Origin: an uncultured Gemmatimonadota bacterium | GTDB taxonomy: Bacteria > JAAXHH01 | Direction of reading: 5' to 3' | Length of the DNA stretch: 64,000 nucleotides | NCBI GenBank assembly: GCA_951812955.1 | Contig: OX638340.1 | Location: 2,752,001-2,816,000 of the forward strand | Part shown: one piece after another, positions 5,212-22,159 of the stretch | How the letters are laid out: each line of letters begins with the position of its first letter | Numbering within the stretch: the stretch's first letter is position 1 | The notes under the pieces: model-generated | Told to the model about the DNA's origin: nothing | What the model saw: the letters and a program-made list of their open reading frames with translations, nothing else | The model's database searches: none | Position numbers and translations under genes: made by a program

Positions 5212-8200
5212 TCAGGCTCGCTTCTGGCGAACTCCAGGTGCGATCAGGCGGTAGAGCGCGGGGGTTACGAACAGGACGAGAACCGTGGATATTGCAAGGC
5301 CGCTGAGGCCGGTGTAGGACAGGCTGGTCCAGAGATCCCGCGTGGAGGGATGTCCGGTGATGAGCAGCGGTGTGAGCCCCACGAGCGTCGTCAGGGACGT
5401 GATCAGGATGGGACGCAGGCGCTGTCCGGCCGCGGTTATGATCGCCTCATCGAGGAGCATGCCGCTTCGCTGAAGGCGGGCCATGCAGTCCACGAGCAGG
5501 ATCGCGTTGTTGACCACGATGCCGATCATGAAGACGGTGCCGAGATAGGCGCCGCGGTCGAAACTCAGATCGAAATACCAGAAAACAAGGAAAATGCCGG
5601 TCAGCCCCATGGGAACCGTCATCAGAACGACCAGGGCTCGACGGAACGATTCGAACAGGGCCGAGGTAATCAGTAAAACAAGCGCGACGGCCAAGCCTAG
5701 GGCGAAGTTCATTTCACCTCGGTCAGCCTGATCGAAATCCGACCAGTTTGGCACGTCGATGCGGTAGCCCGGCGGTAGATCGACCGACGCGAGAAATGAT
5801 CGGCGGTAGCGGTCGGCCAGGCGGATAGTTCCGACGAACTCATAAGATATCCATCGCTCGTACTGTTGCTCGCTGCGCAGAATGTCCGTCGAAACGCGCT
5901 TGAATGCCAGTACGCCGGCGTCCCCGGCGTTAATTCGGCGATCCGCGCCGCCTAGCGGGATGCGTTCGAAGCCGGTGGTTTGCTCCTTGCGGGCGACAAG
6001 CATTCGATAGGGCACGCGACGACCCTCGATCAGGAGTTCGCCGTCCGGCTGGTGTCGGTCGGTGTACGGGAACAACGCCGTGCTCAAGTCGTTCAGTCTC
6101 ATGCCGGCCCGCGCCAAGACCCGTTGCGACGGTTTCAACTGTAGCTCGTAGTATGGACCGCCGCTCCCGAACCCCCCACGGGGCGAATGGGTGATTTCGA
6201 CGTTACGCACGCGGCGGTGTCTGCCCAGTTTCAAGGCGAGGCGCTCGGCGTGATTCCGCAGGTCGTCGAAATTGTACCCCCGAAGCCGGTAGTTGATAGA
6301 AACGGCCCTTTCGCCACCCGTTGAAAACCCCTGGCCGTAACCGTAAACGCCGATATCCAACCCTCCGAACCGGGTGGCCATGTTCTCCATCTCCGCTTCC
6401 ATGGCGTAGGGCAATGGCGACCGGGCGGTCCTGTCGATGAAGAGGGTGTGCACTCTGGCCCGCGTTTCCTGTACCGTTGCGGTCACCTGGACGCCTTTGC
6501 CCCCCACCGCCAGTGCATATCGTTCGAAAGCTACCGCCACCGAATCCACGGTGGCGGTTTCCATCCCCGGGGGGCCATATATGACGACATCGATATAGGT
6601 GTAGGCGCCGCCCCAGGAGAACGACGGTCCTTTCCACACGTCTGTAATGAAGAGATACACGCTGAGACCGAAGCCGGTCACGATAGCGACCGCGATCGGC
6701 CATCGCCACCGGATCATTCGAGCGACGACGCCTTTGTACCACCGGCCGATGCGCGTTGATTTCCGCGATCCGGCCTGCAAAGTGGCACCTCGGTCCAGGA
6801 GGCGCCCGATCACGGGCACCCAGATGCCGGCGACTGCCACGGAAGCCAGGAGCGTCAGTCCGAGACCGAGCGCGAAGGGACCGATGTGTTGCTTCAACTC
6901 GTTTGAGAGATAGATGATGGGGACGAGGGCGACGACGGTCGTCAGCGTCGTCGCTGCGACGGGTATCAACATTTCCGTCGTGCCCTGCACCGTCGCACTG
7001 TCTCGATCCTCGCCTTCCTCGCGTCGACGTCGGATGTTCTCATACACGACCACCGCGTTGTCCACGAGTATACCGAAAGCCAGGGCGAGACCCGATATGG
7101 TCAACAGATCGAGACCCAATCCGAGTGCCTTGAAGCAGATCATCGCGCCAAGCGCGGAGAGGGCAATGGTGGAGAGGAGTATGACAACCGTCCGCAACTG
7201 ACGCAAAAACAGCAGCAGTAACAGGACGATAGCGATCAGGGCGACGGACACGCGCAGGGCGATGTCCCGCAATGCCAGGCGCACGTCGTCGCTGCGGTCG
7301 ACGATCAACGACAGGACGACGCCCGAAGGCAATAGATCGCCCAGGGTCTCCATTTGATTTTTTACGCGGTCGGCCACGTTGAGCATGTTGGTACCGGGTT
7401 GCCTGGCGATCTCTACGGTGATCGCCGGCAGCCCGTTCACCCGGGACACGCCCTGGGGAGTCGAGAGGGTCCACCGCGTCTCGGCTAGATCGCCAAGACG
7501 CAGGACGCGATCGCCGTCCGAGGTAACGGGCAGTCGGGCCAGGTCGTGTATCCCGACCGCCAAGGGCGCCGTCCACAAAGGGACCGACGCGCCACGTCGA
7601 CGGAGGGTGCCGGCGGCGTGGGATTCGACGCCCAGGCGCAGGGCCCTGTGGAAATCCGCAGGAGACAAGCCGGTATTTTCCATGCGGCTCGCGTCGAGCA
7701 GCAAGTGCAGTTCCTCTTCTCTGCCTCCGATGACCTCGACGTCCGAAACGCCATCGACGGCCAGCAGCGCAGGGCGGATATCCTCCAGCGCCAGTCGACG
7801 TAGCGCATGATCGGTCACAGGACCGGACAAACGATAGCTCATGAAACCATCCAGATCTCGGAAAATCTCGGGCGGTGCCTCGGATACGCGCGGCCGAACG
7901 TGGGGTGGCAGGTCTGGACGCAGGACGGCAAGCCGGTCCACGACGAGGGCGCGCGTGACGGCGACAGGAGCAGCCGGGTCGCAGCCCGCCTGAACGCGCG
8001 CGTTTCCTTCCCTGGAAACAGAGCGGACTTCGACGATGCCGGGAACGGAGGCCAACTCCGCTTCAATAGGCGCCGTCACGTGCTTGACGACGGCTTCGGA
8101 AGAAGCGCCGGGCCAGTCCGCCGAGATGACGAGGGTTGGGTAGTCTATGTCGGGCTGCAACGACAGGGGCAGTTGCGCTAAGGAAGCGACGCCCAGCGCC

Positions 8201-8274: not shown

Positions 8275-11200
8275 TCAGTTCTCATTGGCGGCGCGGACCG
8301 GTCCGGCCAGCAGTCGGTAAGCGAGGGGTACTACGAACAGGGTCAGCGCGGAACCTATGATCAATCCGCCGATGAGTGTACGCGCCAGTGGCGCGCCCAG
8401 TTCACCGCCCGCGCCGAACCCTGCGGCCAGCGGCGCGACACCGCAGACCGTGGTCACGGTCGTCATTAGAATCGGACGCAATCGGCGCCGGCCTGCCTCG
8501 TGAATGGCCTCCCTGCGGGAAAGTCCTTCTCTTTCGGCACGCACGATGAAATCGACTTTCAGGATCGCATCGTTCACGACGATACCGACAAGGACGATAG
8601 CGCCGATCCAGGTGATGACGTTGACGCTCGCCCCCCACAGGCTAAGGACGACGACAGCGCCCGCCAGCGCCAGGGGAACGACGGCGATGATGATCCACGG
8701 AAGGCGTAGCGATTCGAACTGGGCCGCCAGGATCAGGAGTACGATCAGAATCGAGAACGCCAGCGAGATCAGCATGGACCGATAGGCTGTTCGCAACGTC
8801 GACTGGGCGCCGCCGATATCGACTTCCAGACCGTCCGCCCGGTTGCTCGTCCATCCCGCGTCCGCCAGCAGGCCCCGTATGCGATCGGATACACCGATCA
8901 GGTCGTCACTGTCGATATCCGCGTTTACGATCGCTACGGGCGTCTGGTCGACGCGATACAGTTCGCCTGCGACTTCGACTGGTTCGACCGTTGCCAACGT
9001 GCGTATGGGAACCCGGCCCACGGCCGTATCGATGGGTTCGTCCAGAATGGCCTGCAACCCGGGCTGTTCCTCCTGGCTTCCCCGCACCACGATGGGTATG
9101 CGTTCATCGGTTCGGTTGAACATGGTCGCCGTCCGTCCATCCATGTAGGTACGCAACGCGTCGGCGATCTTCGCGGGCTCCACGCCGAGTTGCGCGGCGC
9201 GGCGTTCATCCACCACGACGCGATAGCCCGGTCGTCCTTCGACCCCCTGAAGGACGACATCAGCCAGCGGCAACCCGGACGCACTCAACAACGACCGCAG
9301 GACTTCCGCAACGTTTCCGGACGTGTTTTGATCGTCGCGTCCGTCGCTTCTGCGCGTGAGCACCTTGATGGATACGTCGGGTTGGTTTCCGATCAGCGCT
9401 GTCGACATGGCGGTGACCGGCGGTTTCATTTCGACCGCGGTTCCCAGGTGAACCGGAATCTGCCTCCTCAAGGTCGCCATGGCCGTTTGGACGTCGGTCG
9501 CGGTTTCATCGAGATAAACCTGTATCTGCGCCTGTTCAAGTCTCATGGCCCCCGGCGCCGACCCCGGCACGAAGGAAGACACGGCTGCGCCCGCCGTGGT
9601 CAGCGTGCCGCGCACCCCCGGGAGGGAGCGAGCGATGTCGGACAGTTCGCGTGCGGATTCCAGGGTGGCTTCCAACGAAGAACCCTGCGACAGCGAAAGT
9701 TCCATCCAGAACGCACCTTCATCGACTTTCGGAAAGAATGCCCGGGGAAGGGACCGACCCAGGTGCGCAGCGGCTGCCAAGAAAACCAGCAACAGGACCG
9801 AAGTCCGTATCGGATGATCGATGATTGCGTCCACGGCGCGGCGATACATATCATGGAACCTGGAGGACCGCGACGATACGCGGGTGGCGTCGCGCCGCGT
9901 CCATCGGGCCACGAGGGTAGGGAGCAGGGTCAGCGCCACGACCCACGCGAGCAGGAGCGTCACGGTGACGGCCAGCGCCTGATCCCGGAATAACTGTCCC
10001 GCGACGCCCGGCGTCAAGGCCATCGGCAGGAATACCGAGACGGTGGTGAGCGTAGATGCGGCCATGGGCAGTGCCACCTCCGTGGCGCCGCGTCCCGCAG
10101 CCGAATTCGCGTCGAGGCCGGTCTCCCGGTGCCGCGCGATGTTCTCGACGGAGATGATGGCGTTGTCCACCAGCATGCCGACGCCGAGTGCCAGGCCACC
10201 AATGGACATGACGTTCAATCCCACGTCTAGCGTGTCGAAAACGAAGAAGGAAGCGATAACGGCCACCGGCATGGCGATTGCTACGGGGATAGCGTAACGG
10301 ACGTTCCGGAACCAGAGAAGCAGGGCTAGGAACGCCAGCACGCCGCCGCCGGCCAGTGCCGTCAGCGCACCCCGGATGGACCGCCGGACGAAGTCGGCCT
10401 GATCGAATGCCGAGGTCAGCGCGATATCCGGATATTCGGCGTAGAATCCCACTATCACCCGATTAACATCGTCGCTGGTCGTCAGCAGATTTGCGTCCGC
10501 GGTCTTCTGGATCAGGACACCGACGGCGGGCATCCCGTCGAACAGTACGGCCCCCAGCCGCTCGCGTTCGCCCATCTCCACCTCCGCCACGTCGCGTAAA
10601 CGTATCGGTGCGGCCCCGGGTTCGCGGATCAGCACGGCTTCGCGCATATCCTCCAGGGACCGGAATGCGCCGTCAATCCTCAGGGCGTAGCGGTAGTTTC
10701 CGCGACGAAGGAGACCGGCGGGCTTGTCCTGATTATATGCCGCCAGCATTGCGTGTACGGCGTCCAGGGTCAGATCGTACGCGGAGAGACGGGTGGGGTC
10801 TATCGTGATCCGTACCTCCGGCCCGGCGCCGCCGATCACCCTGGCGCGGGCGACGCCCGGCGTCTGTTCCAGCCGGGGTCGCAGTATACGCTCTCCCATC
10901 TGTTGCAACGTAGCCAGGGAAGGTCCATCCTCCCCTGATCCGGATCTGAGCGCCAGGCCCATCATGGGCGCGTTGTCGGGATCAGTATCCAGAACCACGG
11001 GACGGTCGCTGTCCTCGGGCAGGTTAAACCGTTGCGCGTCCAGCCTTTCGCGCACGATCTGGACCGTGTTTCGAAGATCGGAGCTCCAGGCCAGTTCGAC
11101 GGTCACGAGGGATTCGCCCTCCCTGGAGATGGACCGCACCCGTTGTGCGCCGGGCAGGTTCCGCAGGGTTGATTCTATGGGTTCGGTGATCTCCCGGACG

Positions 11201-11376
11201 ACCAGACCCGGCGGGGCGTTGGCCCAGGTCGTCCACACGGTGACGGCGGGGATCTCAAGGGGCGGAAGCAGATTGACGGGAAGACGGGTCAGGGCGATGA
11301 GTCCTACGAGTACGGCGGCGCCCATAAGGCAACAAGTGGCGACAGGCCGTTGAACGGCAAGGCGGGAGAGATTCAT
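8275..11376 (-). CDS. RND family efflux transporter permease, subunit 1
   Basis: 1033 aa. N-terminus MNLSRLAVQRPVATCCLMGAAVLVGLIALTRLPVNLLPPLEIP is typical of RND permeases. Lies 7 bp upstream of the second permease. Confidence 0.9.
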   Translation of the reverse strand: MNLSRLAVQRPVATCCLMGAAVLVGLIALTRLPVNLLPPLEIPAVTVWTTWANAPPGLVVREITEPIESTLRNLPGAQRVRSISREGESLVTVELAWSSDLRNTVQIVRERLDAQRFNLPEDSDRPVVLDTDPDNAPMMGLALRSGSGEDGPSLATLQQMGERILRPRLEQTPGVARARVIGGAGPEVRITIDPTRLSAYDLTLDAVHAMLAAYNQDKPAGLLRRGNYRYALRIDGAFRSLEDMREAVLIREPGAAPIRLRDVAEVEMGERERLGAVLFDGMPAVGVLIQKTADANLLTTSDDVNRVIVGFYAEYPDIALTSAFDQADFVRRSIRGALTALAGGGVLAFLALLLWFRNVRYAIPVAIAMPVAVIASFFVFDTLDVGLNVMSIGGLALGVGMLVDNAIISVENIARHRETGLDANSAAGRGATEVALPMAASTLTTVSVFLPMALTPGVAGQLFRDQALAVTVTLLLAWVVALTLLPTLVARWTRRDATRVSSRSSRFHDMYRRAVDAIIDHPIRTSVLLLVFLAAAAHLGRSLPRAFFPKVDEGAFWMELSLSQGSSLEATLESARELSDIARSLPGVRGTLTTAGAAVSSFVPGSAPGAMRLEQAQIQVYLDETATDVQTAMATLRRQIPVHLGTAVEMKPPVTAMSTALIGNQPDVSIKVLTRRSDGRDDQNTSGNVAEVLRSLLSASGLPLADVVLQGVEGRPGYRVVVDERRAAQLGVEPAKIADALRTYMDGRTATMFNRTDERIPIVVRGSQEEQPGLQAILDEPIDTAVGRVPIRTLATVEPVEVAGELYRVDQTPVAIVNADIDSDDLIGVSDRIRGLLADAGWTSNRADGLEVDIGGAQSTLRTAYRSMLISLAFSILIVLLILAAQFESLRLPWIIIAVVPLALAGAVVVLSLWGASVNVITWIGAIVLVGIVVNDAILKVDFIVRAEREGLSRREAIHEAGRRRLRPILMTTVTTVCGVAPLAAGFGAGGELGAPLARTLIGGLIIGSALTLFVVPLAYRLLAGPVRAANEN

Positions 11377-11612
11377 GATCGCTCAGGTATAGTGGCCGTC
11401 CGCGATACGATAGACCGCGATTCGGGGGTTGGGCTCGCCGTCCTCAACGGGCGCCATATCGACCCGTACATTTCGTCGTCGAGATCAGGCGGCGTGTCGC
11501 GTACCCACTCCAGGTTGGAATCCCGCGCGGTGGCGGGGTCGGAAGATACAACCAGAAGGGCGAAGATCATCACGGGGATAACGAGTTTCAACACGTTGTC
11601 TCCTCTCGTCAC
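11373..11612 (-). CDS. Small hypothetical protein (signal/TM-anchored) inside the RND operon
   Basis: 79-aa ORF that overlaps the adaptor stop and the permease start with ATGA overlaps at both ends. GAGGAG sits upstream of an in-frame GTG. Hydrophobic N-terminus LKLVIPVMIFALLVVSS; the rest is low complexity. Unconfirmed. Confidence 0.25.
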   Translation of the reverse strand: MTRGDNVLKLVIPVMIFALLVVSSDPATARDSNLEWVRDTPPDLDDEMYGSIWRPLRTASPTPESRSIVSRTATIPERS

Positions 11613-12820
11613 TCCATCATGCTCACGCTCACCGGGACGTCATGGGCCAGCGTGACGTTTCCGGTAACGGCCACTGTATCGCCTTCGGCGAGTCCGGAGG
11701 TGATTTCTCGCCAGTCGTCTGCCTCCCGGCCCAAGGCGACGTAGGTCCACTGGGCCCGTCCATCCCGTATTCGAAAGACCAGGGGGCGCTCGTCGCGGAC
11801 GACGATGGCGCCGGCGGGCACGGCCAACCGGTTCTCGTAGAGCGTACCCTCGATTCGGATCTCGGCGTACATGCCCGGTTTCAGCCGGCCGTCGGCGTTG
11901 GGCAGGTCGGCCTCAACGTAGCCCGTGCCCCTTTCCTCGTCCACAGCGGGGTAGATACGGGCGATGCGGCCTTCGAAGGATTCTTCCGGCCAGGCGACAA
12001 CCCGAATCCGTATGCCGCGGCCGATGTCGACTGCGCCTAAGTCGCTTTCCAACACGGCGGCCTTGACGCGGATACGGGACACATCCATGATCGTGAGGCA
12101 GGTTTCCCCGGCGGCGACCTGTTGACCTTCTTCGACGAGTCGTTCTGCGATGATGCCGGAATAGGGGGCGTTGATGGCGGTTTGTTCCAGGTCCAACACG
12201 GCGCGAGCATGAGCGATCTCCGCTCCGGTAAGGCCGGTATTCTGCGCGATGAGATCATACCTGTGATCCCCGGAGAGTAACTGCACGGCTTCGTAGTCTC
12301 TGCGGGCGGTCTGAAGCGCCGCCTGATCGATTTCCTCCCGCTCGATGGCAGCTTGCGCCTTGCGCCAGGCGTTTCTCTTGGTGTGTGTCCAGGTCGTATC
12401 GGGCGCCGTGACTTCGGTAGTGTCGGTGATGAATAGCGCGTACCTGTACCGGGCGTCCATGAGCGCCGAACGGGCTTCGTCCACCTGGATGCGGAACCGT
12501 TCTTCTTCCAGTCGTGCCAGGAGTTGGCCCTCATTGACAGTTTCGCCCTCGCGTACCAGGACGCTTTGGATTCTGCCGCCTACCCCCGCGCTCAGATCGG
12601 TCCGTCGTCCGGCCAGGAGACGACCGGAGGCCACGATCGTCCTCGTCAGCGTCCTTTGGGTTGCTACCGCGGCTTCCACGGGGAAGGGCTGCGGCTCGGT
12701 TTCCACCGGGACGGCACCCATAGGCTCGTTCGAAGTACCGGTCGGTTCGGGTCGCAGGAATATGACCGCCGCGACAATGGCGAGGATGACGATAATGAGG
12801 ATGGGAATGATCGTTTTCAT
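11609..12820 (-). CDS. Efflux RND transporter periplasmic adaptor subunit (membrane fusion protein, HlyD family)
   Basis: N-terminal TM anchor (MKTIIPILIIVILAIVAAVIFL); biotinyl-lipoyl-like and beta-barrel regions; C-terminus RIRDGRAQWTYVALG...GDTVAVTGNVTLAH typical of MFPs. Confidence 0.88.
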   Translation of the reverse strand: MKTIIPILIIVILAIVAAVIFLRPEPTGTSNEPMGAVPVETEPQPFPVEAAVATQRTLTRTIVASGRLLAGRRTDLSAGVGGRIQSVLVREGETVNEGQLLARLEEERFRIQVDEARSALMDARYRYALFITDTTEVTAPDTTWTHTKRNAWRKAQAAIEREEIDQAALQTARRDYEAVQLLSGDHRYDLIAQNTGLTGAEIAHARAVLDLEQTAINAPYSGIIAERLVEEGQQVAAGETCLTIMDVSRIRVKAAVLESDLGAVDIGRGIRIRVVAWPEESFEGRIARIYPAVDEERGTGYVEADLPNADGRLKPGMYAEIRIEGTLYENRLAVPAGAIVVRDERPLVFRIRDGRAQWTYVALGREADDWREITSGLAEGDTVAVTGNVTLAHDVPVSVSMME

Positions 12821-13755: not shown

Positions 13756-14844
13756 CTACAATGTGTCGAGAGGTTGCCTGAGCGTGTATGTCACTACGGC
13801 GGGATTGGATGACTCGTCGGCGGGTTCCACCAACATGTACAGACGATCTTCCCGTGTGAAGAGCGCGTCCGGACCTCCCATGAAATCCGGCATCTGGAGA
13901 CTGCTCGCGATCTGGTTCAGATCGGCATCGTACAGATCCATGAAGACGCGGGACCCTTGCGGGTCGGCGAATACTGCGCCCAGCCACCGATCGCCGATTC
14001 TAAGGAGTTGATAGAACTGGCTCCATGAACGCATATACTCCTGCCGTTTCCGCATGTCGTCCAGGACCATCGCGTCGGGCGGGTCCCGCGGAGGCACGTA
14101 GAAGGGCGATCGACCCTGCGCGGTTTTCACGAGTTCGCCATCGGGCGTGTATTTCCTCACGGTATATTCGTACGGGGTCGCGACGTAGAGAAACCGCCCG
14201 ACCGATACAATCCCTCCACCCCGTGAAGCCGCGGCGACATTGTAGTTCTCGGACTGAGGGGCGAATTCATTGAGCGTATCGCCCTGATCGTTCAATTCGT
14301 GCACCACGTGAATTGCGCCGCTGGTATTCACGTATCCGAAAACCCGACCCTCGGCAGTTACGTGTATATCTTCCAATCGCGGCGAAGGCGAGAAGCTGTT
14401 CCTGAAAACATAGTCGTTCCCGTAGATTGAAATGCGTGACAGCGTCATGTCGTAAAGTAAAAAAACTCCATCTCGCGTAGCCGCCAATGCAAGGGGATAG
14501 CGATACTCGCCGGGACCATCGCCCGGAGCGCCGAGGTGTTTTTTGCCTCGTCCCTTCCCATCGAATACGTCGACGCGAGTGGTAACGAAGTCCAGCACGA
14601 TGCAATCACCGTTGGACGCCACGGCGCCGATCTTGGGCAAAGGACCGAGCAGGAACTCATCGCTCGAATCGAGATTGATCCTCGATTCCACCCGGTAGAC
14701 ATCGTCGAATGTCAACGGTCGCTCCTGGCTCGCGCATGCCAACGGTCCGCACAGTCCGCATAGTATGAACAGCGCAATGGCAGAACGCGAAGCGGGACAC
14801 CATCTTGTAACGGGTGTAAAGGAACTGAGGTTTTTCGTGCTCAC
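13756..14844 (-). CDS. 6-bladed beta-propeller lipoprotein, TolB-like/NHL-like (paralog A)
   Basis: Signal peptide plus lipobox-like LAC. Repeated beta-strand blades (GDCIVLDFVTTRVDVFDGKG, LYVATPYEYTVRKYTPDGELV). Clear paralog of 15566..16717. Confidence 0.7.
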   Translation of the reverse strand: MSTKNLSSFTPVTRWCPASRSAIALFILCGLCGPLACASQERPLTFDDVYRVESRINLDSSDEFLLGPLPKIGAVASNGDCIVLDFVTTRVDVFDGKGRGKKHLGAPGDGPGEYRYPLALAATRDGVFLLYDMTLSRISIYGNDYVFRNSFSPSPRLEDIHVTAEGRVFGYVNTSGAIHVVHELNDQGDTLNEFAPQSENYNVAAASRGGGIVSVGRFLYVATPYEYTVRKYTPDGELVKTAQGRSPFYVPPRDPPDAMVLDDMRKRQEYMRSWSQFYQLLRIGDRWLGAVFADPQGSRVFMDLYDADLNQIASSLQMPDFMGGPDALFTREDRLYMLVEPADESSNPAVVTYTLRQPLDTL

Positions 14845-14889: not shown

Positions 14890-15531
14890 TCAACCTTGTG
14901 CCGCGATGGTATTGATGTAGACGCCAAGCTTCTCATAGAAAGTGACGGTTCCCTGTTCGTCCTGATAATCCGAGTAATTCGCCAGTAGAACTCGATTGTC
15001 ACGTCCCAGAAACACGATCAAGGGGTATCTGTTGTAATCGAACCTCTTTAACAGATGTGATTCGGCGTCCATTACGGCAACGTCTTGAATCCGGTATTGT
15101 TTCAGATGAGAGAGAAAATGGGTCTCTTGAAAATCGGAAAAAACCATAATGGCGTCTATGTTTCTTTCCCTCAAGCGACTACGATACTCGTTGAACAACC
15201 GAAGCTCCATGTCCAGACAGCGGTTGCAGTTCGTTCCCGCAAAATGGTAGATCAGCTTATAACCGCCCGTATCCGAAAACAGGTCTCTGAACCTGGTGTT
15301 GGCGCGCTGCAATCGAGCTAGATCCGGTCCCAGACCAGCGCCTTCAAGCGCATGTTCATGGATGGTCAATTGTTCGCCTATGCTCATGGTCACCTTGTTC
15401 TTCCACGTGCCGTTTTCGGCGGTTAACTCCGATACTCTTTGGAACAGCACGATATTCAATGTGAGCAAGGAAACAATTCCGGCTAAAAGCCATTTTCGAG
15501 GTATGTCGAGACTAACCGCATTCGATGACAT
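14890..15531 (-). CDS. Thioredoxin-fold protein with CxxC motif (TlpA/MauD-like redoxin)
   Basis: N-terminal TM/signal anchor (WLLAGIVSLLTLNIVLF). Redox motif GTNCNRCL (C-x-x-C) in a thioredoxin-like context. Confidence 0.6.
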   Translation of the reverse strand: MSSNAVSLDIPRKWLLAGIVSLLTLNIVLFQRVSELTAENGTWKNKVTMSIGEQLTIHEHALEGAGLGPDLARLQRANTRFRDLFSDTGGYKLIYHFAGTNCNRCLDMELRLFNEYRSRLRERNIDAIMVFSDFQETHFLSHLKQYRIQDVAVMDAESHLLKRFDYNRYPLIVFLGRDNRVLLANYSDYQDEQGTVTFYEKLGVYINTIAAQG

Positions 15532-15565
15532 GCGGACACCTCCTACGGGCTTTACTGTAATACGC

Positions 15566-16717
15566 TTAACCCGATGATTTGAGTTCGTAGACGACTACAG
15601 TTGGATTGGGCAGATTCTTAACGTCCTGCGACAACACGACGGGTGCTTCTGAACGCAGCAGATAGAGTCGGTCACCCCTGGAGACGATCCCCTGCGAACC
15701 ACCGCCAATGTGCTCGGGCAATTGCAGGTCGCCGGTAACGTAATTGAGATCTGTGTCGTAGAGATCCAAAAACACGCGACGCTCATTTGGTTCGGCCAGG
15801 ACCACTCCTATCATCTCGTCTCCTATCTTCAACAGTTGTCTTATGTGGCTCCACGTGGCGTGGTACGCTTGTCGTTTGCGGAGATCGCTCGAAATTTCGT
15901 GCTCATCAAAGTCTGTCGAAGGCGGCACATAGTGCGACGATCTGCCCCGTACCGTTCGAATCAGTTTTCCACCAAGATCGTACTTCCGAAGTTCGTACTC
16001 ATAGGGGGTGATTACATAAAGGTGTGAACCAAGCAGCAAGATACCTCCCCCTCTGGATTCTCCCACGGTACTGAACTCCTCGTATTGATCGGCGAAACTG
16101 TTCTTGATCTCTCCTGACCTAGTGCACTCGTAGACTACCCTATCGGCCCCCTTCCTGCTAGCGACACCACTCGTATAGCAAAAGAAGCGATCGTCGGCTG
16201 TCACGATAATCTGACCCAGGAAAAGAGGAAGATCGACACTGCTGTTGAACGTAAAATCTTCGCTGTACTCCTGGATTCGCAGAAGATCTCCATCGTATAC
16301 GTAGTACCTGTGTGTTTGATCGCTATAGTAAAGGTTATCGGGGTAGAGGTATTGGTCCGCATTCGTCCCAAGACTTCCAATCTTCGCCTTGCTTCCGCCC
16401 TTGGAGTCGAATACAAGTATCTGTCGAACCCCGAAGTTATCCAACACAATGAAATCGCCCTGTTCGTTTATCGCGCTGAACCAGGGCAAAGCGCTCAGCG
16501 TGAAGCCCGAATCATTGGCAAGCGGGATCTGACGTATTTCTGTATACACTTCCAAGAAAGACTGTTTATCTCCATAGGAATCGGCGAGATGAGCAATGGA
16601 TGTATTGCGGGCTTCTTCCATCGAACCATGAGTACTCTGACACGCCATTGCTCCCATGAAAAACACCATTAGCGAAAAGGACAGCAACCGTAGCGTTTCA
16701 TTCGTTCGCTCTGACAT
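15566..16717 (-). CDS. 6-bladed beta-propeller lipoprotein, TolB-like/NHL-like (paralog B)
   Basis: Signal peptide plus AMAC lipobox-like. Blades GDFIVLDNFGVRQILVFDSKG and LYVITPYEYELRKYDLGGKLI are colinear with paralog A. AGGAGG lies 9 nt upstream of the ATG. Confidence 0.7.
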   Translation of the reverse strand: MSERTNETLRLLSFSLMVFFMGAMACQSTHGSMEEARNTSIAHLADSYGDKQSFLEVYTEIRQIPLANDSGFTLSALPWFSAINEQGDFIVLDNFGVRQILVFDSKGGSKAKIGSLGTNADQYLYPDNLYYSDQTHRYYVYDGDLLRIQEYSEDFTFNSSVDLPLFLGQIIVTADDRFFCYTSGVASRKGADRVVYECTRSGEIKNSFADQYEEFSTVGESRGGGILLLGSHLYVITPYEYELRKYDLGGKLIRTVRGRSSHYVPPSTDFDEHEISSDLRKRQAYHATWSHIRQLLKIGDEMIGVVLAEPNERRVFLDLYDTDLNYVTGDLQLPEHIGGGSQGIVSRGDRLYLLRSEAPVVLSQDVKNLPNPTVVVYELKSSG

Positions 16718-16750
16718 GGTTGGATTCCCTCCTCATTAGCTTGCCTTTAA

Positions 16751-17087
16751 CAGTACAACCGGAAAGTGCTCGCTTCTTAAGTTGACGCTTATCGTGAATC
16801 GAACCACCACAATCCTATCGGTCAGGCTTGACTACGCTCAAGGCCAGGTATGAGCGCTAAATGGAGAACAATGATGAGATGTCGAGGGCTGGCAGTGGTA
16901 CACGTTATTTGCTACATGTACCCAATTGTATACTTGATTGGCTCCTGCCGGCTCCGTGGACAACGCCAGCATGCTCATTGCGCCGGCCATCGTCAATGCA
17001 CCGACGAACATTACACGAGTGAAGATGCTTCTGATTGAAGTTTTGATGACCGTGCTCCTTTCATTGTGCCTTTCCGGTTGTACTGTG
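16751..17087. repeat. Perfect 16-bp inverted repeat (cagtacaaccggaaag / ctttccggttgtactg) flanking a 305-bp AT-richer segment
   Basis: Read directly from the sequence. Left arm 16751-16766, right arm 17072-17087. The IR extends to 17 bp with one more matching base. Confidence 0.8.
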
Positions 17088-17170
17088 CAATGAATAAAAT
17101 GACACCTGACCGATAGTCATCAACAGATACATATTGGAAGTGGAAACGGCTGGATATTTAGGGTAAAACC

Positions 17171-17692
17171 CTACACCTCCATAATCTCCACCAGTTCGTC
17201 TTCAGGATACGGGAAATGCCCCTGGGTACCCCGGTTGACCCGGGCCATGCGCTCCCCGAACACCATGTCTTCTCTGATCAATTCCGAAGTCCTGTGAATG
17301 CACTCCAACGTTGGGATTCCTCCTGTCGCGATCGCTGCTTCGGCTTCCTCCAGAAGAGCCGTCATGTCGTAAAACATCTTGATATTCGGCGACAGCATCT
17401 TGCGAGCCTGTTCCGGCAGTGAGGCGCGTAACTCCAGACAGAGATCGAGGGCTTTCAGAAGATGTTCCCTCGCGATTCGAAAGCACTTCCGTGCTTTACT
17501 CAGTGAAGCGCGATACGGCAGGATATTTCCCGCCAGGCAGGCGCCCAGATCTTCTATTTCCTCCAGGGCGCCAAGTCCCATGAAATAGTGGCCCCATCCC
17601 GTAAGTGTGAGCGGATAGATCCGGTGTTCGAAGGCTTCTTTGAGCTCCACATTGTCTGGCATCGGCGGAAGTGGGCAGGTCCAATCAGACAT
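17171..17692 (-). CDS. Hypothetical protein (173 aa)
   Basis: Clean ORF with no family recognised. First gene downstream of the palindromic operator-like site at 17793-17809. Confidence 0.5.
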   Translation of the reverse strand: MSDWTCPLPPMPDNVELKEAFEHRIYPLTLTGWGHYFMGLGALEEIEDLGACLAGNILPYRASLSKARKCFRIAREHLLKALDLCLELRASLPEQARKMLSPNIKMFYDMTALLEEAEAAIATGGIPTLECIHRTSELIREDMVFGERMARVNRGTQGHFPYPEDELVEIMEV

Positions 17693-17792: not shown

Positions 17793-17809
17793 ATAGGGTG
17801 TATCCCTAT
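17793..17809. promoter_or_regulatory. Palindromic operator-like site ATAGGGTGTATCCCTAT, copy 1
   Basis: Perfect 6-bp arms with a 5-bp spacer. About 100 bp upstream of the start codon of 17171..17692 (minus strand). A near-identical copy lies at 18612-18628. Confidence 0.45.
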
Positions 17810-17890: not shown

Positions 17891-18526
17891 TCATTCTTCC
17901 ATTTTGATCAGACCAAGTTTGATCGCCGCTCGGATCAGATCGGGAAGGCTGTGCGTGTCTAGTTTCGCCATCAGATTTATGCGATGATTCTGCACGGTTT
18001 TTATACTGATTCGCATGGTTTCGGCTATCTGGCGATTGGATCGCCCCGATACGATCAGTCGAAGGATTTCGCGCTCACGGGGAGTAAGCCGGGGCGGTGT
18101 GCCATGGGGGTACTCCTCATACAGGTAATCGGCATGATCCATGGCCCGGGATTGGTACGTAACGCCCCTGCAAACGGTGCGTATCGCTTTGACCAACTCT
18201 TCGCCCGCTGATTTCTTGAGCACGTAGCCCCTGGCGCCGTTGTCCAGCGCTTTCCGGATCAGTGCGGGATCGGAATGCATCGACAGCATGACCACCCGGA
18301 CCTCGGAAAACGACGCGCGAATCCGCCTCGTCGCTTCGATACCGTTGATACCGGGCATCTCGACGTCCATCACTATGACGTCCGTTCGGACTCGATGCAC
18401 GGCATCGATCGCCTCCCGGCCATCCACGGCCTCGGCGACTATTCGAATATCGGACTCTTTTTCGAGCAGGTCCCGCAGCCCCTGCCGAATCAGATGATGA
18501 TCGTCTGCAATCACTACGCGTATCAT
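17891..18526 (-). CDS. LuxR/NarL-family response regulator (REC + HTH)
   Basis: MIRVVIADDHHLIRQGLRDLL...DVIVMDVEMPGINGIEA... C-terminal LuxR HTH (LTPREREILRLIVSGRSNRQIAETMRISIKTVQNHR). Confidence 0.9.
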   Translation of the reverse strand: MIRVVIADDHHLIRQGLRDLLEKESDIRIVAEAVDGREAIDAVHRVRTDVIVMDVEMPGINGIEATRRIRASFSEVRVVMLSMHSDPALIRKALDNGARGYVLKKSAGEELVKAIRTVCRGVTYQSRAMDHADYLYEEYPHGTPPRLTPREREILRLIVSGRSNRQIAETMRISIKTVQNHRINLMAKLDTHSLPDLIRAAIKLGLIKMEE

Positions 18527-18611
18527 ATGATGTTCGCGATCTCCTCTTCTGGTCGTTACATGACGAAATCCGTCGTTTGCTCAATACTAACAACAAAAAG
18601 GGGGACTATCC

Positions 18612-18628
18612 ATAGGGTGTTTCCCTAT
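18612..18628. promoter_or_regulatory. Palindromic operator-like site ATAGGGTGTTTCCCTAT, copy 2
   Basis: Located in the 196-bp gap between the two response-regulator genes, about 85-100 bp upstream of the 17891..18526 start codon. Confidence 0.45.
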
Positions 18629-18722
18629 GTTCCGCTTTTTCTTACGGTATTGGGGGGCTGAAGTGGCGAGAGAGATAGACTGCGGCCAACCGGATTGCTA
18701 CCAAGCGGGGAAAGACGACGGT

Positions 18723-19376
18723 TCATTCATCCAGGAAAGCGAGACGGTGCTTGAGGGCCAGGAGTATGAGATCCGGCAGATTGTGGACTTTCAACTTCTT
18801 CATCAGGATCGCGCGGTGTTTTTCCACGGTCTTGTCGCTGATGTTCAGGACCTCCGCCGCGGCCTGATTGGTATGTCCCTCGACGATGAGCTGAAGTATC
18901 TCCCGTTCGCGGGATGAAAGCTGCTCCAGAACGGCCTTTGACTCATTCGCCGATTCCGTCTGCAGGAATCCCGATAGCACGGTTTGAGCAATCGAAGGTG
19001 AAAGATAGATTTCGCCCTTGTTGGCGGACCGGATGGCGATCAGGAGTTCCTCCACGACGGATCTCTTGAGGAGATACCCGCTGGCCCCGCATCTGAGCGC
19101 CTGGCGCACCACGTCCTCATCCGAATGCATGGATAGTATGACGACGCGGGTATCGACGGACAGCGTCTGAATCCGCCGCGTGGTCTCGATACCGTTCAGC
19201 AAAGGCATGGCGATATCCAACATGGCGACGTCCGGTCTCTTCCGTTGTACCAGGTTCAGGGTCTCGTGACCATCGGCCGCTTCGCCGACAACTTCCATAT
19301 CCTCGGCCTTTTCGATTAGAGACACGATGCTTTGACGGACCAGTTGGTGATCGTCGGCAATAACGATCCTGATCAT
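18723..19376 (-). CDS. LuxR/NarL-family response regulator (REC + HTH), paralog
   Basis: MIRIVIADDHQLVRQSIVSLIE... LSSREREILQLIVEGHTNQAAAEVLNISDKTVEKHR. Its start overlaps the kinase stop (ATGA). Confidence 0.9.
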   Translation of the reverse strand: MIRIVIADDHQLVRQSIVSLIEKAEDMEVVGEAADGHETLNLVQRKRPDVAMLDIAMPLLNGIETTRRIQTLSVDTRVVILSMHSDEDVVRQALRCGASGYLLKRSVVEELLIAIRSANKGEIYLSPSIAQTVLSGFLQTESANESKAVLEQLSSREREILQLIVEGHTNQAAAEVLNISDKTVEKHRAILMKKLKVHNLPDLILLALKHRLAFLDE

Positions 19377-22159
19377 TTCTCCTCCAAAGGAATTGTAGCG
19401 ACCAGACGGGCTCCCGCGCCTGGTTTCGAGTAAACATTCATGCGGCCATTCAGCGATTCAAGGCGTTCCTGCATATCTATCAAACCGATTCCTGTTTCAT
19501 TCTGATCCGAAAGTGTATCTGCAAGATCAAAACCCTGGCCGTTATCCTGTATCGATAGTTGTACGACTTCGCCATTGCGTTTCAAGCTAACTTCCACATG
19601 AGAGGCTTGTCCGTGTTTGACGCAGTTCGTCAGCCCTTCCTGCAGTATACGATACAGGCAGATATCGATTGGATTGGAGATTTCCGTAGTATCCATGCCA
19701 ACGTATGAGACCGGCATTTGAGTTCGTTGTGTTAAACTCTTGCATAGTCCTTCCAATGCTGTATTCAGCCCGACTGTATCCAGTGTCGGGGGACGGAGAT
19801 TATGGGAGATCGCACGTAGTTTCTCCAGCGTCTCGTCGGTTAGCGCCACGGCGTCGCTCAGCCGTTCTGCCGTATGATCGGAGACCCCGGACAACTCGTT
19901 CCGGGTTATTTCAAGGCTCATCTTCAGCGCCGTGAGCGCTTGTCCCGTATCGTCATGGAGATCCCGCGCCAGCCGGCTTCTTTCCGATTCCTGAATGTCG
20001 ATGAGTCGTCTGGAGAGTCTCTTCAATCCCAGGGCCTGATGCCGTAGCGATGTTGCCATATCGAGGTTCTTCAACGCCAATTCCAATTCGGCCGACAGGA
20101 CCAGCAACTGTTCTTTTTCATCGCTGTTGAACGGTTCTTCGCTGAGTTTTGCACCCAGTGCAATACATCCTTGACGGTCAGATCCTTGTCCGAGTACGAC
20201 CATGAGTTCGCACCCGGTGTCTCTCATACTTTCATTTGCGTACAGTTCGCGATACTCGACCAACGATTGCTCGGGGGGTATCGATCGCAGAAGGCCTTCG
20301 ACCTTGCCGGCTGCTTCAGTGAAGAACGTTTCATTTCTCTTGAGATCCTGCTCCGGCTTCTCACGCACTGCGTACCATCGGACCGAAAGCGATTCCTGAG
20401 GACTTTCTGCAAGGTATATCGCCAGATAGCAAACGTCCAATCCCTCCAGCAACTCTTGCCCGGTGGCGCTCAAAAGCGCATTACGATCCTGGTATTGCGT
20501 TAAGGATTGCTCGAGTCTGAAAAGGCGTTGTCGGTTTTCATATTCATCACGCAAAAGATATTGATTCAGTAAGCGGATGACGGGCGTCTTCACCCAGGTC
20601 CACCCTCCGACGAGTATCAAGGTGAATCCAGCGGCAGCGCTGGCGATCAGAAGATCGGAGGTTTCCATACCGGTCGGCCACACGGATATCAGTTCAAATA
20701 GTGCGATTAACGTCCAGAAGCTGAATATGAGATATATGCTCTTGGCATTGGCCAGGTAACGCAGACCACTTCCGAAGACGAACTTCAGGCCGAACACTCG
20801 GTGTGCCAGAATGGTATAGACAAAGGCGAGCGGCAGTCCACACTGCAGTACTACGTGGATGATCCGATCGAAGAGCCAGACTAATACCGGCAGGGCGGCC
20901 CCCCTTATTGGAATCAGGTCCCAACTGGCCAGAAGTGTACCAGGTTGCGTAATAGTCCACACGGGAGCCAAAATGAGGGCCGAGATGAATCCTGCCTTGA
21001 TGATATGCAGTCGCGTGCGTTGCTGATGCCGCGCGACGGAACGTTGGGCTATCATAAGACATCCCGCGGCGATGACAACGAGGGTGGGCAGCGCGGGAAC
21101 GGGCACTGGTTCAACGATTTCCGTGATGATACCAACTCCTGCGTGGTCCCACCCATAGGTCAGACTCAGCAAATAGATCAGACGGCACGATAGCCAGACA
21201 ATCAGGGGCGTCAGGATGAACCACCGGTTTTTGAGCAGCCATGATCCGAAAGCCGTCGCACTGGGGAAGACGGCAAGAATCCGAAACATGAGAACGATTT
21301 CCAGTAAGGATGCCGCGACGATGGCGAATATGCTGAGGAACAGTACCCAGTCCGGCCATCCGGCTATCATGGGATGGAAAGCGGGCGAGGAGGAAAGCGC
21401 CATAGCGAGGAAGAGCAACGCGCATCGAAAGGCAAGGGGACTGTGCGGACTCCTGAACCCCATCCAGGTTCCGAAGACCAGCAGGACCATCGGTAAAATC
21501 AGATACGGCCCCCGTTGGAACCACGTCATCGCGCCTACGCCCAGTACGAGTTCCTCCTGATTGACCTCGACTGCGTATCGTACCTGTTCCGTGGCCTCAA
21601 GCGTGAGTATACCAGCGTGCATGCTGCCGTCGCGAAGCCAGGCAAGATTGAAACGTTCACCGGGCTTGCTCCGCAAACGCGCCTGGAAATAGGCTTCGGG
21701 ACGTGTCCCGAGATCCGTGCCATCAATAGAGATCACCAGGTCACCCGGTCGCAATCCGGCTTTGTCCGCAGGGCTGTCCGCGTCTACTTGCGTGACGGTA
21801 ATACCGCCGTCCTCGCGTATGCGAACGAGGTGGAACCACGTGCCCTCCTGCAGATTGCTCACCGCACTTTTCGTGAGTCCCTTCGTCTGTATCATTTCAT
21901 TTCCGAAGAACTGGATACCCGGTGACCAGTGCTCGATTTGCGTGAACCGTACCAGCGTCCACGTGACCAGTCCTAAATGCATACACGTGAACATGACCAG
22001 TGCGCTGAGTGCGACGTATCGGCGGATGAGTGTCTTCAACCGAGAGCTACTCAATTGCGAGGGAATTGTATTTGAAGAGTCATTCATGTCAACATACAGA
22101 TTGCTTTTCGAGAAGCATCCTGAAGCAATTTCGGAAAACAGGTGGACTTGACTCAACAA
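19373..22159 (-). CDS. Membrane sensor histidine kinase with N-terminal PDZ domain, multi-TM region, GAF-like and HisKA_3/HATPase_c domains
   Basis: PDZ-like segment VTQVDADSPADKAGLRPGDLVISIDGTDL after TM1. About 8-10 hydrophobic helices. H-box ERSRLARDLHDDTGQALTAL (NarL-type HisKA_3). Then N/G boxes (DNGQGFD, GIGLIDMQERL). Confidence 0.85.
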   Translation of the reverse strand: MLSQVHLFSEIASGCFSKSNLYVDMNDSSNTIPSQLSSSRLKTLIRRYVALSALVMFTCMHLGLVTWTLVRFTQIEHWSPGIQFFGNEMIQTKGLTKSAVSNLQEGTWFHLVRIREDGGITVTQVDADSPADKAGLRPGDLVISIDGTDLGTRPEAYFQARLRSKPGERFNLAWLRDGSMHAGILTLEATEQVRYAVEVNQEELVLGVGAMTWFQRGPYLILPMVLLVFGTWMGFRSPHSPLAFRCALLFLAMALSSSPAFHPMIAGWPDWVLFLSIFAIVAASLLEIVLMFRILAVFPSATAFGSWLLKNRWFILTPLIVWLSCRLIYLLSLTYGWDHAGVGIITEIVEPVPVPALPTLVVIAAGCLMIAQRSVARHQQRTRLHIIKAGFISALILAPVWTITQPGTLLASWDLIPIRGAALPVLVWLFDRIIHVVLQCGLPLAFVYTILAHRVFGLKFVFGSGLRYLANAKSIYLIFSFWTLIALFELISVWPTGMETSDLLIASAAAGFTLILVGGWTWVKTPVIRLLNQYLLRDEYENRQRLFRLEQSLTQYQDRNALLSATGQELLEGLDVCYLAIYLAESPQESLSVRWYAVREKPEQDLKRNETFFTEAAGKVEGLLRSIPPEQSLVEYRELYANESMRDTGCELMVVLGQGSDRQGCIALGAKLSEEPFNSDEKEQLLVLSAELELALKNLDMATSLRHQALGLKRLSRRLIDIQESERSRLARDLHDDTGQALTALKMSLEITRNELSGVSDHTAERLSDAVALTDETLEKLRAISHNLRPPTLDTVGLNTALEGLCKSLTQRTQMPVSYVGMDTTEISNPIDICLYRILQEGLTNCVKHGQASHVEVSLKRNGEVVQLSIQDNGQGFDLADTLSDQNETGIGLIDMQERLESLNGRMNVYSKPGAGARLVATIPLEEK

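Follow-up and report, generated by a model that had tools for sequence, protein, structure and literature searches.

A 64,000-nt stretch of DNA from an uncultured Gemmatimonadota bacterium (assembly GCA_951812955.1, contig OX638340.1, positions 2,752,001 to 2,816,000; hereafter the window) carries on its minus strand, from position 22159 down to 5212, a string of genes for a sensor kinase, two response regulators (RRs), beta-propeller proteins, a putative thioredoxin-fold (Trx-like) protein and a resistance-nodulation-division (RND) pump. We found that this string contains a conserved gene for a small, predicted secreted peptide, and that the peptide gene, a propeller gene, the Trx-like gene and a second propeller gene form a rare and unnamed four-gene cassette, which is the conserved core of the locus. 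The whole is best explained as three separable modules that were assembled in one Gemmatimonadota lineage and wired by one operator. We interpret it, with a probability that we put at about 45%, as a regulator-controlled secreted-peptide locus with periplasmic handling of the peptide and pump-mediated export or self-protection.

A conserved small peptide gene and its enclosing stem

In the original prediction, made from the sequence alone, the 453-bp segment upstream of propeller 1 was described as an element flanked by inverted repeats. It turns out to contain a conserved small gene (16838-17011, with an in-frame extension upstream to 17047), and this gene is the most consistently linked partner of the propeller and Trx-like genes. 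In relatives, its product is 69 aa long and has a typical Sec signal peptide (MKTSIRSIFTRV, a hydrophobic stretch and AGA). The predicted mature peptide encoded in the window is NQVYNWVHVANNVYHCQPSTSHHCSPFSAHTWP, of approximately 33 residues. At positions 17045-17047 (minus strand), the window reads ATC, where the closest relatives (L001-L003, P0144 and P0147) read ATG. An internal codon for Ile in L001 is ATG here and in P0144 and P0147, and yields a 57-aa open reading frame (ORF) in the window. The ATC at the ancestral start may reflect a genuine mutation, initiation at a non-canonical codon, or an error of sequencing or assembly. Except for the peptide start and a third propeller gene, the genes of this copy are intact.

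Members of the peptide family share a charged N-terminus, a hydrophobic core and an Ala-x-Ala-type cleavage site, often followed by Pro-Pro. Their C-termini follow the pattern [FWY]-H-C-x7(8)-C-x3-S-[AS]-x-[STV]-[WY], allowing for one additional residue at most, in which the His, both Cys and one Ser are invariant; some members have Tyr or Leu in place of a second His. A profile search among 5.8 billion entries recovered 12 protein clusters, all unnamed, to which uncalled ORFs must be added. The clusters come from Gemmatimonadota-like, Acidobacteriota and Nitrospirota metagenome-assembled genomes (MAGs). The peptide matches no Pfam family, not even NVEALA, a peptide family whose genes may neighbor DUF5128 genes in Bacteroides. 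We also considered a metal-binding peptide of the chalkophore or CusF-like type, which is not favoured because the second His is not conserved and the family has no conserved metal-binding signature.

In the window and in L001, the peptide ORF and its ribosome-binding site lie between the arms of a perfect 17-nt inverted repeat. The stem that it forms in the window is present in both the minimum-free-energy and the centroid RNA folds, with z = -4.6 against dinucleotide shuffles; the corresponding value for the stem of L005 is z = -3.6. In L004, pairing is preserved: two of the pairs are exchanged by compensatory double substitutions (A-T to G-C and C-G to T-A), and one A-T has become G-T, which leaves a G-U pair. 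The distant loci L005 and L017 each have their own perfect 14-nt flanking repeat at the same position, related in sequence yet different. We infer that the stem is an RNA-level element that processes or stabilizes the peptide message. We also considered an invertible DNA switch around the gene; it is less likely than an RNA stem, given that the gene has the same orientation in all recovered relatives, that pairing in L004 is kept by a G-U-compatible change, and that no invertase gene is adjacent. A duplex-folding search for a flanking stem in L008, L014, L016 and L018 returned only uninformative long duplexes. We make no functional claim for a further 12-nt inverted repeat (16815-16826/17105-17116), which is not conserved in L004.

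A four-gene cassette as the conserved core

We compared the neighborhoods of propeller 1, Trx-like and kinase homologues. The peptide ORF is always directly upstream of the first propeller gene (L001-L006, L008/L009, L014-L016 and L017-L022), and in these loci the order propeller, Trx-like, propeller follows wherever the contig continues. Within the clade of the window, all genomes share a flanking sulfatase gene, and what follows it varies. In L001, the order is kinase, RR, RR, a 179-aa protein, peptide, propeller 1, Trx-like, propeller 2, MauE, the 149-aa protein, adaptor and two RND permeases. L004 has neither kinase nor RRs and runs peptide, propeller 1, Trx-like, propeller 2, MauE, the 149-aa protein, adaptor, a third type of propeller (prop3) and two RND permeases. 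L012 and L013 lack kinase, peptide, Trx-like and MauE genes and have a propeller 2-like gene, the adaptor, six (L012) or four (L013) prop3 genes and two RND permeases. The two-component system is thus present in some genomes of the clade and absent from others.

Outside the clade, we recovered loci from Candidatus Saccharicenans, other Acidobacteriota, Nitrospirota and unassigned metagenome contigs. Where the contig is long enough, these loci share the peptide, propeller, Trx-like and propeller genes and nothing more; none of these cassettes has MauE, RND genes or a kinase. The four-gene cassette is the conserved core, to which particular lineages have added MauE, the 149-aa gene, the pump and the kinase cassette. 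The 17-kb supercluster as a whole is not a conserved unit, an outcome that the original prediction had listed among those that would count against it. Genes next to the distant cassettes are of mobile type or have no relation to them. The cassette of L014 is surrounded by a serine recombinase gene, a HEPN gene and a phage capsid gene, and those of L018-L022 by an AAA_14/DUF4143 gene and an MNT/HepT pair.

Some of the distant loci contain additional small ORFs. The Saccharicenans locus L008 encodes a second secreted, Cys-rich protein (9027-9278; 83 aa, 8 Cys) between an extra upstream propeller gene and the peptide gene; the extra propeller gene is itself preceded by an ORF of 162 aa (7488-7976) that contains a CC motif and, in its N-terminal part, a hydrophobic stretch. 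Neither has a Pfam match. In L005, a 63-aa ORF approximately 490 bp after propeller 2 (4318-4509) resembles, by eye, the C-terminal fragment of an ABC-transporter ATPase and may be the trace of a lost exporter beside the cassette.

The Trx-like protein of the window had been described as TlpA-like. It stays below the cutoffs of both Pfam (Thioredoxin_8, 20.4 bits; cutoff 27) and NCBIfam (ResA, 18 bits; cutoff 170), but its family profile matches ResA/TlpA-type structures (3HCZ, ResA) with E-values of 2e-4 to 2e-3 and with the CxxC aligned to the active site. The N-terminal anchor and the CxxC are kept across the lineages that have the peptide cassette. The family is rare, with 40 relatives (E <= 1e-3) among 1.84 billion cluster representatives; a profile search of genome contigs with the Trx-like alignment matched only the two closest MAGs.

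The AlphaFold2 model of propeller 1 (mean predicted local distance difference test (pLDDT) score 87.7) has the exported Bacteroides protein BF0058 (4RAA) as its best Foldseek match (E 1.7e-14), followed by NHL domains, with the PAL and virginiamycin lyase enzymes far lower in rank. An exact-sequence look-up of propeller 1 returned no match. Propellers 1 and 2 have a lipobox-like Cys, whereas the prop3 proteins have cleavable signal peptides and no lipobox Cys.

The additional genes have narrower distributions. MauE accompanies the cassette only in Gemmatimonadota (the window, L001-L003 and L004) and none of the distant cassettes has it; L010 and L011 derive from the same genomes as L001 and L004, respectively. 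The 149-aa protein is conserved in L001 and L004 and absent from L012 and L013. Only the closest relatives (L001-L003 and L010) yielded homologues of the 173-aa protein. No ORF of the locus contains a mauA, mauB or mauG domain. When known classes of peptide that are ribosomally synthesized and then post-translationally modified (RiPPs) were considered, a candidate precursor was present, but the cassette has no known maturase domain, and the peptide N-terminus is a Sec-type signal. The radical-SAM clusters of L024-L026, described below, are loci apart from the cassette.

A palindromic box links the regulators to candidate target genes

The palindrome TAGGG-N5-CCCTA occurs in the window exactly three times with no mismatch, and all three copies are in the locus (17159, 17794 and 18613); shuffled sequence gave a mean of 0.92 matches with one mismatch allowed. 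The original prediction had reported two near-identical palindromes, and both are real, but a third copy, at 17159, had been overlooked.

The box recurs in relatives that have no kinase nearby. At the position of the third box, L004, which has no adjacent kinase, has a perfect copy, and L001 has a one-mismatch copy (CAGGGGTTTACCCTA). L012 has no local kinase either and carries a perfect box together with a homologous promoter before its operon of propeller 2-like, adaptor, prop3 and RND genes. Because the box fronts the peptide gene or the operon even in the kinase-less L004 and L012, members of this regulator family, on this sequence evidence, very probably act on the propeller-pump operon in the whole clade, whether in cis or in trans. 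The earlier suggestion that the palindromes connect the two-component system to the downstream genes is borne out by the same two genomes.

The kinase-RR-RR cassette of the window is one member of a paralogous family with several copies per genome. In the paralogous cassettes L024-L026, a counterpart of box 1 is found between RR2 and RR1, and the box also fronts downstream target genes. In related genomes, such cassettes are directly upstream of a MacB/FtsX permease, an ABC/ABC2 transporter or S41/radical-SAM peptide clusters. A box-plus-promoter module of approximately 60 bp is nearly identical between the 173-aa gene of the window and both the ABC transporter and the S41/radical-SAM cluster of L025.

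The peptide clusters next to the paralogous cassettes (L024 14569-22628, L025 20211-22640 and L026 13703-22667), each preceded by the box, are RiPP-like in content. They encode an S41 peptidase, a 56-58-aa ORF, a radical-SAM enzyme, in some cases a pentapeptide protein, an S8 peptidase, an 88-aa acidic ORF and a MacB/FtsX permease. The 56-58-aa product begins MKVLIKP, is acidic, contains 5-6 Cys and ends in DILF. We also observed an 8-bp GC-containing hairpin after the RR1 stop (CCGGAATC-N9-GATTCCGG; 17840-17880, minus strand), with a T-rich loop and a following A-run. It is conserved upstream of box 2 in L025; read on the coding strand, it does not qualify as a canonical terminator.

Propeller genes recur within the pump operon

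With an adaptor gene directly upstream and two permeases that match ACR_tran over their full length, the last genes of the string encode an RND pump. Permease 2 is approximately 30% identical to permease 1, and permease 1 is below every NCBIfam equivalog cutoff.

The 79-aa ORF between the adaptor and permease 1 had been counted as a gene and is instead a deletion relic of a propeller gene. At this position L004 has, by blastn, a gene for a 333-aa DUF5128/NHL propeller, prop3. The window keeps only the two ends of such a gene (approximately 230 bp), and the 79-aa ORF aligns to the L004 propeller over its N-terminal ~50 residues only, covering the signal peptide and the start of the mature protein. 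L001 has lost prop3 cleanly and has a clean adaptor/permease junction. A second set of relics, a mosaic of decayed duplicates, is found at 22160-23796. It is made up of the adaptor 3′ end in a diverged copy (23625-23761) and of two prop3-type fragments that overlap (23033-23566 and 22308-22703), and the whole 1.6-kb segment is absent from L001.

In L012 (12399-18701) and L013 (12421-16588), the space between the adaptor and the first RND permease is occupied by tandem DUF5128/NHL arrays, with six prop3 genes in L012 and four called genes plus a partial fifth in L013. These propellers are 40-48% identical to prop3 of L004, and in both genomes the propeller 2-like gene directly precedes the adaptor. 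Every clade genome that we examined has DUF5128 genes inside the adaptor-RND operon or directly against it. The propeller genes are low in GC (50-54%) and interleaved with high-GC pump genes (61-63%), which argues that the association between propellers and pump is recurrent and not a single insertion boundary. This link is the part of the original prediction that survives best, in changed form.

The sensor kinase is a member of a paralogous family

Hydropathy places the elements of the kinase in the order transmembrane (TM) helix 1, extracytoplasmic PDZ domain, ~9-10 TM helices, cytoplasmic linker, HisKA_3 and HATPase. The AlphaFold2 model of the sensor part (pLDDT 73) likewise has a helix, PDZ strands and then ~10 helices. 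In a PDB search, the PDZ domain was the only part recovered, and it matches the PDZ domains of CtpB, DegP, CtpA, DegS and AlgW. These domains bind C-terminal peptides. An LHDD H-box is visible in the translation, and the combination of HisKA_3 and HATPase with REC and GerE domains in the regulators assigns the system to the NarL/LuxR type.

Kinase homologues at 55-65% identity come from sources named Gemmatimonadetes or Gemmatimonadota at NCBI. Between paralogous cassettes, RR2 is 94% identical (L025) and RR1 87%. The PDZ domain is 85-88% identical among several paralogous kinases, and the TM bundle and linker 55-75%. Compared with P0028, P0034, P0059 and P0097, the kinase (19373-22087) is a mosaic: its HisKA_3/ATPase core shares 93-96% identity with paralogs at other loci and just 70% with the positional orthologue, the sensor part of which is at 91%. 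This mosaic suggests exchange between paralogous cassettes by gene conversion.

Layout and composition of the locus

All ORFs of the string were confirmed on the minus strand (Table 1), in agreement with the description of a tight co-directional gene string. The kinase/RR2 and 79-aa ORF/permease 1 junctions are ATGA overlaps as reported, but the adaptor/79-aa ORF junction, for which the same had been claimed, is a GTGA overlap. The 149-aa gene does adjoin the adaptor gene, with a spacing of 3 nt between stop and start and not 4 bp. From propeller 1 to permease 2, intergenic gaps do not exceed 45 nt, except at the 79-aa relic. Among the domain assignments made without database searches, those for the PDZ histidine kinase, the two LuxR-type regulators, the two DUF5128 propellers, MauE/DoxX, the adaptor and both permeases were supported above the Pfam cutoffs.

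Table 1. Coordinates of the locus features in the window, in order from the sulfatase side
Feature	Position	Strand	Remarks
Mosaic of decayed duplicates	22160..23796	-	Between sulfatase gene and kinase
Sensor histidine kinase, PDZ + HisKA_3 + HATPase	19373..22159	-	Pfam, all above cutoffs; likely start Met25 at 22087 or later
Response regulator RR2, REC + LuxR/GerE HTH	18723..19376	-	Pfam; ATGA overlap with kinase
Box 1, TAGGGTGTTTCCCTA	18613..18627	.	Centre 94 bp upstream of RR1 start
Response regulator RR1, REC + LuxR/GerE HTH	17891..18526	-	Pfam
Box 2, TAGGGTGTATCCCTA	17794..17808	.	Centre 109 bp upstream of 173-aa gene; in ~60-bp box-plus-promoter module
173-aa cytoplasmic protein	17171..17692	-	No TM segment, no family match
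Box 3, TAGGGTAAAACCCTA	17159..17173	.	Overlaps 173-aa gene stop; centre ~119 bp upstream of peptide ancestral start
Stem 5′ arm, 17-nt perfect inverted repeat	17070..17086	-	Closes stem around peptide gene
Small secreted peptide gene (predicted)	16838..17047	-	57 codons from ATG at 17011, or 69 codons from 17047
Stem 3′ arm, 17-nt inverted repeat	16750..16766	-	~25 nt before propeller 1 Shine-Dalgarno
Propeller 1, DUF5128/NHL-type six-bladed, probable lipoprotein	15566..16717	-	Pfam 30.8 bits (cutoff 22.9)
Membrane-anchored protein of probable thioredoxin fold (Trx-like), one N-terminal TM, conserved CxxC (CNRC)	14890..15531	-	
Propeller 2, DUF5128 six-bladed, lipobox-like PLAC	13756..14844	-	Pfam 37.6 bits (cutoff 22.9)
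MauE/DoxX-family integral membrane protein	13255..13731	-	PF07291 93.6 bits (cutoff 27)
149-aa protein, N-terminal signal or anchor	12824..13273	-	Weak DUF6795/Ig-like match
RND periplasmic adaptor (membrane fusion protein, MFP)	11609..12820	-	HlyD_D23 108 bits; TIGR01730 RND_mfp 204 bits (cutoff 94.9)
79-aa ORF, relic of prop3-type propeller gene with internal deletion, not functional	11373..11612	-	blastn vs L004, L001
RND permease 1	8275..11376	-	ACR_tran PF00873 end to end, 678 bits (cutoff 28)
RND permease 2	5212..8268	-	ACR_tran PF00873 end to end, 467 bits (cutoff 28)

The genes in 12824-23566 have a GC content of 48-57%, and the adaptor, the RND permeases and flanking backbone genes one of 62-64%. 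The step, in both GC and GC at third codon positions (GC3), is sharp and falls exactly at the junction of the 149-aa and adaptor genes. On the coding strand from the peptide gene to permease 1, a consensus scan found no near-consensus promoter (>=10/12) and no terminator-like site; the scan overall did not exceed chance and was not used to set operon boundaries. Rfam models gave no match in the locus and two tRNAs elsewhere in the window. We rejected an anti-phage defense reading, as PADLOC models gave 0 matches for seven locus proteins. The window encodes TamB and an Omp85 protein, from which we conclude that the cell is diderm.

Elsewhere in the window, a second low-GC patch (54-56%) at 34000-38000 holds an IS1595-family transposase gene and an N6/N4 DNA methylase gene (35432-36307 and 36326-37576). 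Downstream of the pump and converging on the operon end, two genes for large TPR proteins lie on the plus strand (59-5097), one of 875 aa with a GWxTD domain and one of 790 aa with a weak Y_Y_Y match.

Proposed working and alternatives

We divide the locus into three modules. Module A comprises the peptide, the two propeller (lipo)proteins and the anchored CxxC protein, found in several phyla, with MauE and the 149-aa protein added in this clade only. Module B is the adaptor and two RND permeases, whose operon habitually holds DUF5128 genes in this clade. Module C is the kinase with its PDZ domain, multi-TM bundle and HisKA_3 domain and the two NarL/LuxR-type regulators, as one copy of the paralogous cassette family.

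We hypothesize that the regulators bind TAGGG-N5-CCCTA and activate three promoters, those of RR1, of the 173-aa gene, and of the peptide gene with everything downstream. The long-range stem around the peptide mRNA may then, through processing or stabilization, allow more peptide than enzymes to be made. The pre-peptide would be exported by Sec and cleaved, and the anchored Trx-like protein would act on its two cysteines, MauE serving in this clade as redox partner in the membrane. The propellers might bind or modify the peptide in the periplasm. The pump, under the same promoter, would expel the product or keep it from the envelope of the producer, and the kinase would complete the circuit by responding to the peptide or to what the peptide does to the envelope. 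Taken singly, export of the peptide by the pump seems doubtful to us, and sensing of the peptide by the kinase slightly more so.

A broader version of this scheme would make the locus one of a Gemmatimonadota family of diderm peptide signaling or bacteriocin circuits, in which paralogous kinase/LuxR cassettes with a shared TAGGG-N5-CCCTA box each govern their own secreted-peptide factory, making either radical-SAM peptides, with S41/S8 peptidases and MacB exporters, or the peptide of this locus. At this locus, the propellers and the anchored thioredoxin, with or without MauE, would be a new kind of machinery that matures a Sec-exported peptide wholly in the periplasm, the RND pump would expel it over the outer membrane, and the kinase would sense the released peptide. 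We regard this version as speculative and rather unlikely.

A number of observations weigh against a regulated secreted-peptide locus. The ATC start and the several relics mean that this copy of the locus may be partly eroding. No equivalent of the flanking repeat was found in L008, L014 or L016, and the stem was seen only in the window clade and L005/L017. Because no dedicated exporter or kinase accompanies the cassette outside the clade, export by the pump and sensing by the kinase are not general properties of the cassette. Likewise, the partnership between propellers and pump needs no peptide, since L012 and L013 have propellers and pump without one. The operon encodes no outer-membrane factor (TolC/OprM), and no OEP match was found among ten further large ORFs of the window scanned with Pfam, a scan that left out the remaining ORFs of at least 260 aa; such a factor could be encoded elsewhere in the genome. 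Pfam and NCBIfam recognized no class of peptide-modifying enzyme in the cassette, and the modeled propeller fold alone reveals no function. The PDZ domain is among the better conserved parts of the kinase, which argues against its being a peptide-specific receptor. Finally, the GC step between the 149-aa gene and the adaptor is compatible with secondary juxtaposition.

The conservation of the PDZ domain among paralogous kinases is what would be expected of a common stress ligand, and it is one of several observations that fit an envelope-stress or detoxification locus, the reading offered in the original prediction, in which the PDZ kinase would sense envelope damage or an external toxic compound or peptide and induce the RND pump together with redox and repair proteins, the small peptide being accessory or regulatory. 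The PDZ domain is of the HtrA/DegS/Ctp class, and the PDZ domain of DegS reads the exposed C-termini of misfolded envelope proteins. Paralogous cassettes stand directly upstream of MacB/FtsX and ABC2 transporters, a pairing that resembles Bce-type modules for sensing and detoxification of peptide antibiotics as well as mdtABCD-baeSR, and L012 and L013 retain box, propellers and pump without peptide or Trx-like protein. However, across phyla the propeller-Trx-propeller triad goes together with the peptide gene in loci that have neither pump nor kinase; a separate box precedes the peptide gene, which is also enclosed by a conserved stem; and other paralogous cassettes flank radical-SAM peptide-producing clusters and not transporters alone. 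Together, the stem, the peptide and the peptide-cluster contexts of the paralogous cassettes suggest a regulated secreted-peptide system more than a response to stress or toxic compounds, which we consider less likely but still a serious alternative.

That the neighbors share no function at all, with a horizontally acquired low-GC island of kinase and peptide cassettes placed upstream of a resident housekeeping RND operon and with the shared gene direction and small gaps being incidental, would account for a GC/GC3 step exactly at the 149-aa gene/adaptor junction and for the insertion, deletion and duplication scars of the region. The patchy presence of the kinase cassette among clade members and the recombinase, phage, toxin-antitoxin and HEPN genes beside the cassette elsewhere also fit. 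It is at odds with the low-GC propeller genes interleaved in the high-GC adaptor-RND operon of L004, L012 and L013, with the spacing of just 3 nt before the adaptor and with the box-plus-promoter that precedes the operon in all four arrangements; the lack of near-consensus promoters or terminator-like sites between the peptide gene and permease 1 adds weak evidence. We hold mere juxtaposition to be improbable. We think it about as improbable, if anything slightly more so, that a disulfide-looped peptide serves propellers 1 and 2, which would bind it in stoichiometric amounts, as subunit, as cofactor carrier or as lid, by analogy with methylamine dehydrogenase (MADH), in which a beta-propeller heavy subunit holds a small light subunit containing Cys and Trp and whose maturation needs MauE and the thioredoxin-like MauD. 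The locus does combine a confident MauE, a TlpA/ResA-like CxxC protein and beta-propellers with a small exported peptide that has invariant Cys and a conserved C-terminal aromatic residue. Yet it has no gene for a MauG-like heme protein, flavoprotein, other cofactor-forming enzyme or electron acceptor, its propellers are six-bladed and NHL-type in contrast to the seven-bladed MADH/QHNDH type, and the mature peptide, at ~33 aa, falls far short of MauA and QhpC in size. None of the distant lineages has MauE in its cassette, and enclosure of the peptide mRNA by a stem would suggest an excess of peptide and not 1:1 subunits.

A regulated secreted-peptide locus of this kind would bear on several matters. 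Across several phyla that have been little studied, a triad of propeller, thioredoxin and propeller has a conserved, unnamed peptide family as its fixed partner, and DUF5128, a family with solved structures and no function, gains a concrete candidate ligand or substrate. For a multi-copy kinase family of Gemmatimonadota, a phylum in which hardly any regulation has been characterized by experiment, a candidate operator and a candidate regulon are now at hand. RND operons with arrays of propeller genes are unusual and could point to protein-assisted substrate delivery or to RND export of peptides across the outer membrane. The value of these results lies in a well-framed, testable hypothesis and not in a demonstrated mechanism, as the chemistry is inferred only.

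Comparison with known systems

The original prediction recognized no described system in this arrangement, and we found no description of one in the searchable literature. No described counterpart of the four-gene cassette, or of propeller genes inside an RND operon, was found in the literature or named by family models. The two-component system and the RND pump are of ordinary kinds.

For the regulatory part, the closest likeness is to the ComQXPA circuit of Bacillus, which works with a peptide pheromone, and to plnABCD, which regulates bacteriocins. ComP, the receptor of the ComX pheromone, has been modeled with a first TM helix, a PDZ-like extracytoplasmic domain, a multi-TM bundle, HisKA_3 and a LuxR-type partner, and modeling of its extracellular loop reports the same PDZ matches as we found for the window kinase (PMC9620489). 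The window kinase shares this overall architecture and the LuxR-type partner, a match of architecture only. As in ComQXPA and plnABCD, a small peptide gene stands behind the candidate operator of the regulators, and a genome has several paralogous kinase cassettes, each of them next to a cluster for a peptide or an exporter. In plnBCD of Lactobacillus plantarum, two paralogous regulators follow one kinase, as they do here. In contrast to these systems, the present organism is diderm, the peptide has an ordinary Sec signal and no double-glycine leader, and the locus has neither a ComQ-like prenyltransferase nor a C39 ABC exporter. The PDZ domain is not the variable part among paralogs of the window kinase, and NCBIfam yielded no ComP family.

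The pump resembles the heteromultimeric pumps MdtABC(D)-BaeSR and MuxABC in having one adaptor and two tandem permeases with ~30% identity, and in having a two-component system in the same gene string. However, the permeases score far below the NCBIfam equivalog cutoffs for MdtB/MuxB (382 vs 1584 bits) and MdtC (362 vs 1774 bits). The regulators are NarL-type, not OmpR-type as in MdtABC-BaeSR, and no outer-membrane factor gene was found among the ORFs scanned. The relatives' operon also differs from mdt and mux in having one to six propeller genes between adaptor and permease.

A MauE-family protein near a membrane-anchored CxxC protein of probable thioredoxin fold recalls MauE/MauD and ResA/TlpA, and it is plausible that a small exported Cys-containing peptide is the client of such a pair. 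The locus differs from mau in lacking mauA, mauB and mauG and in that most copies of the cassette have no MauE, and from ResA/TlpA in that its Trx-like protein is under the Pfam and NCBIfam cutoffs. The propellers resemble DUF5128/BF0058 (4RAA) and NHL propellers, with Pfam scores above cutoff and 4RAA as the best structural match; they differ in that propellers 1 and 2 are a distinct pair whose genes flank the Trx-like gene behind a specific peptide gene. For prop3, the comparison is with CusF, a periplasmic substrate chaperone with a fold unrelated to propellers that is encoded within the cusCFBA RND operon. The likeness is in idea only: prop3, as a soluble or lipid-anchored periplasmic protein, is likewise encoded within the pump operon in L004, L012 and L013.

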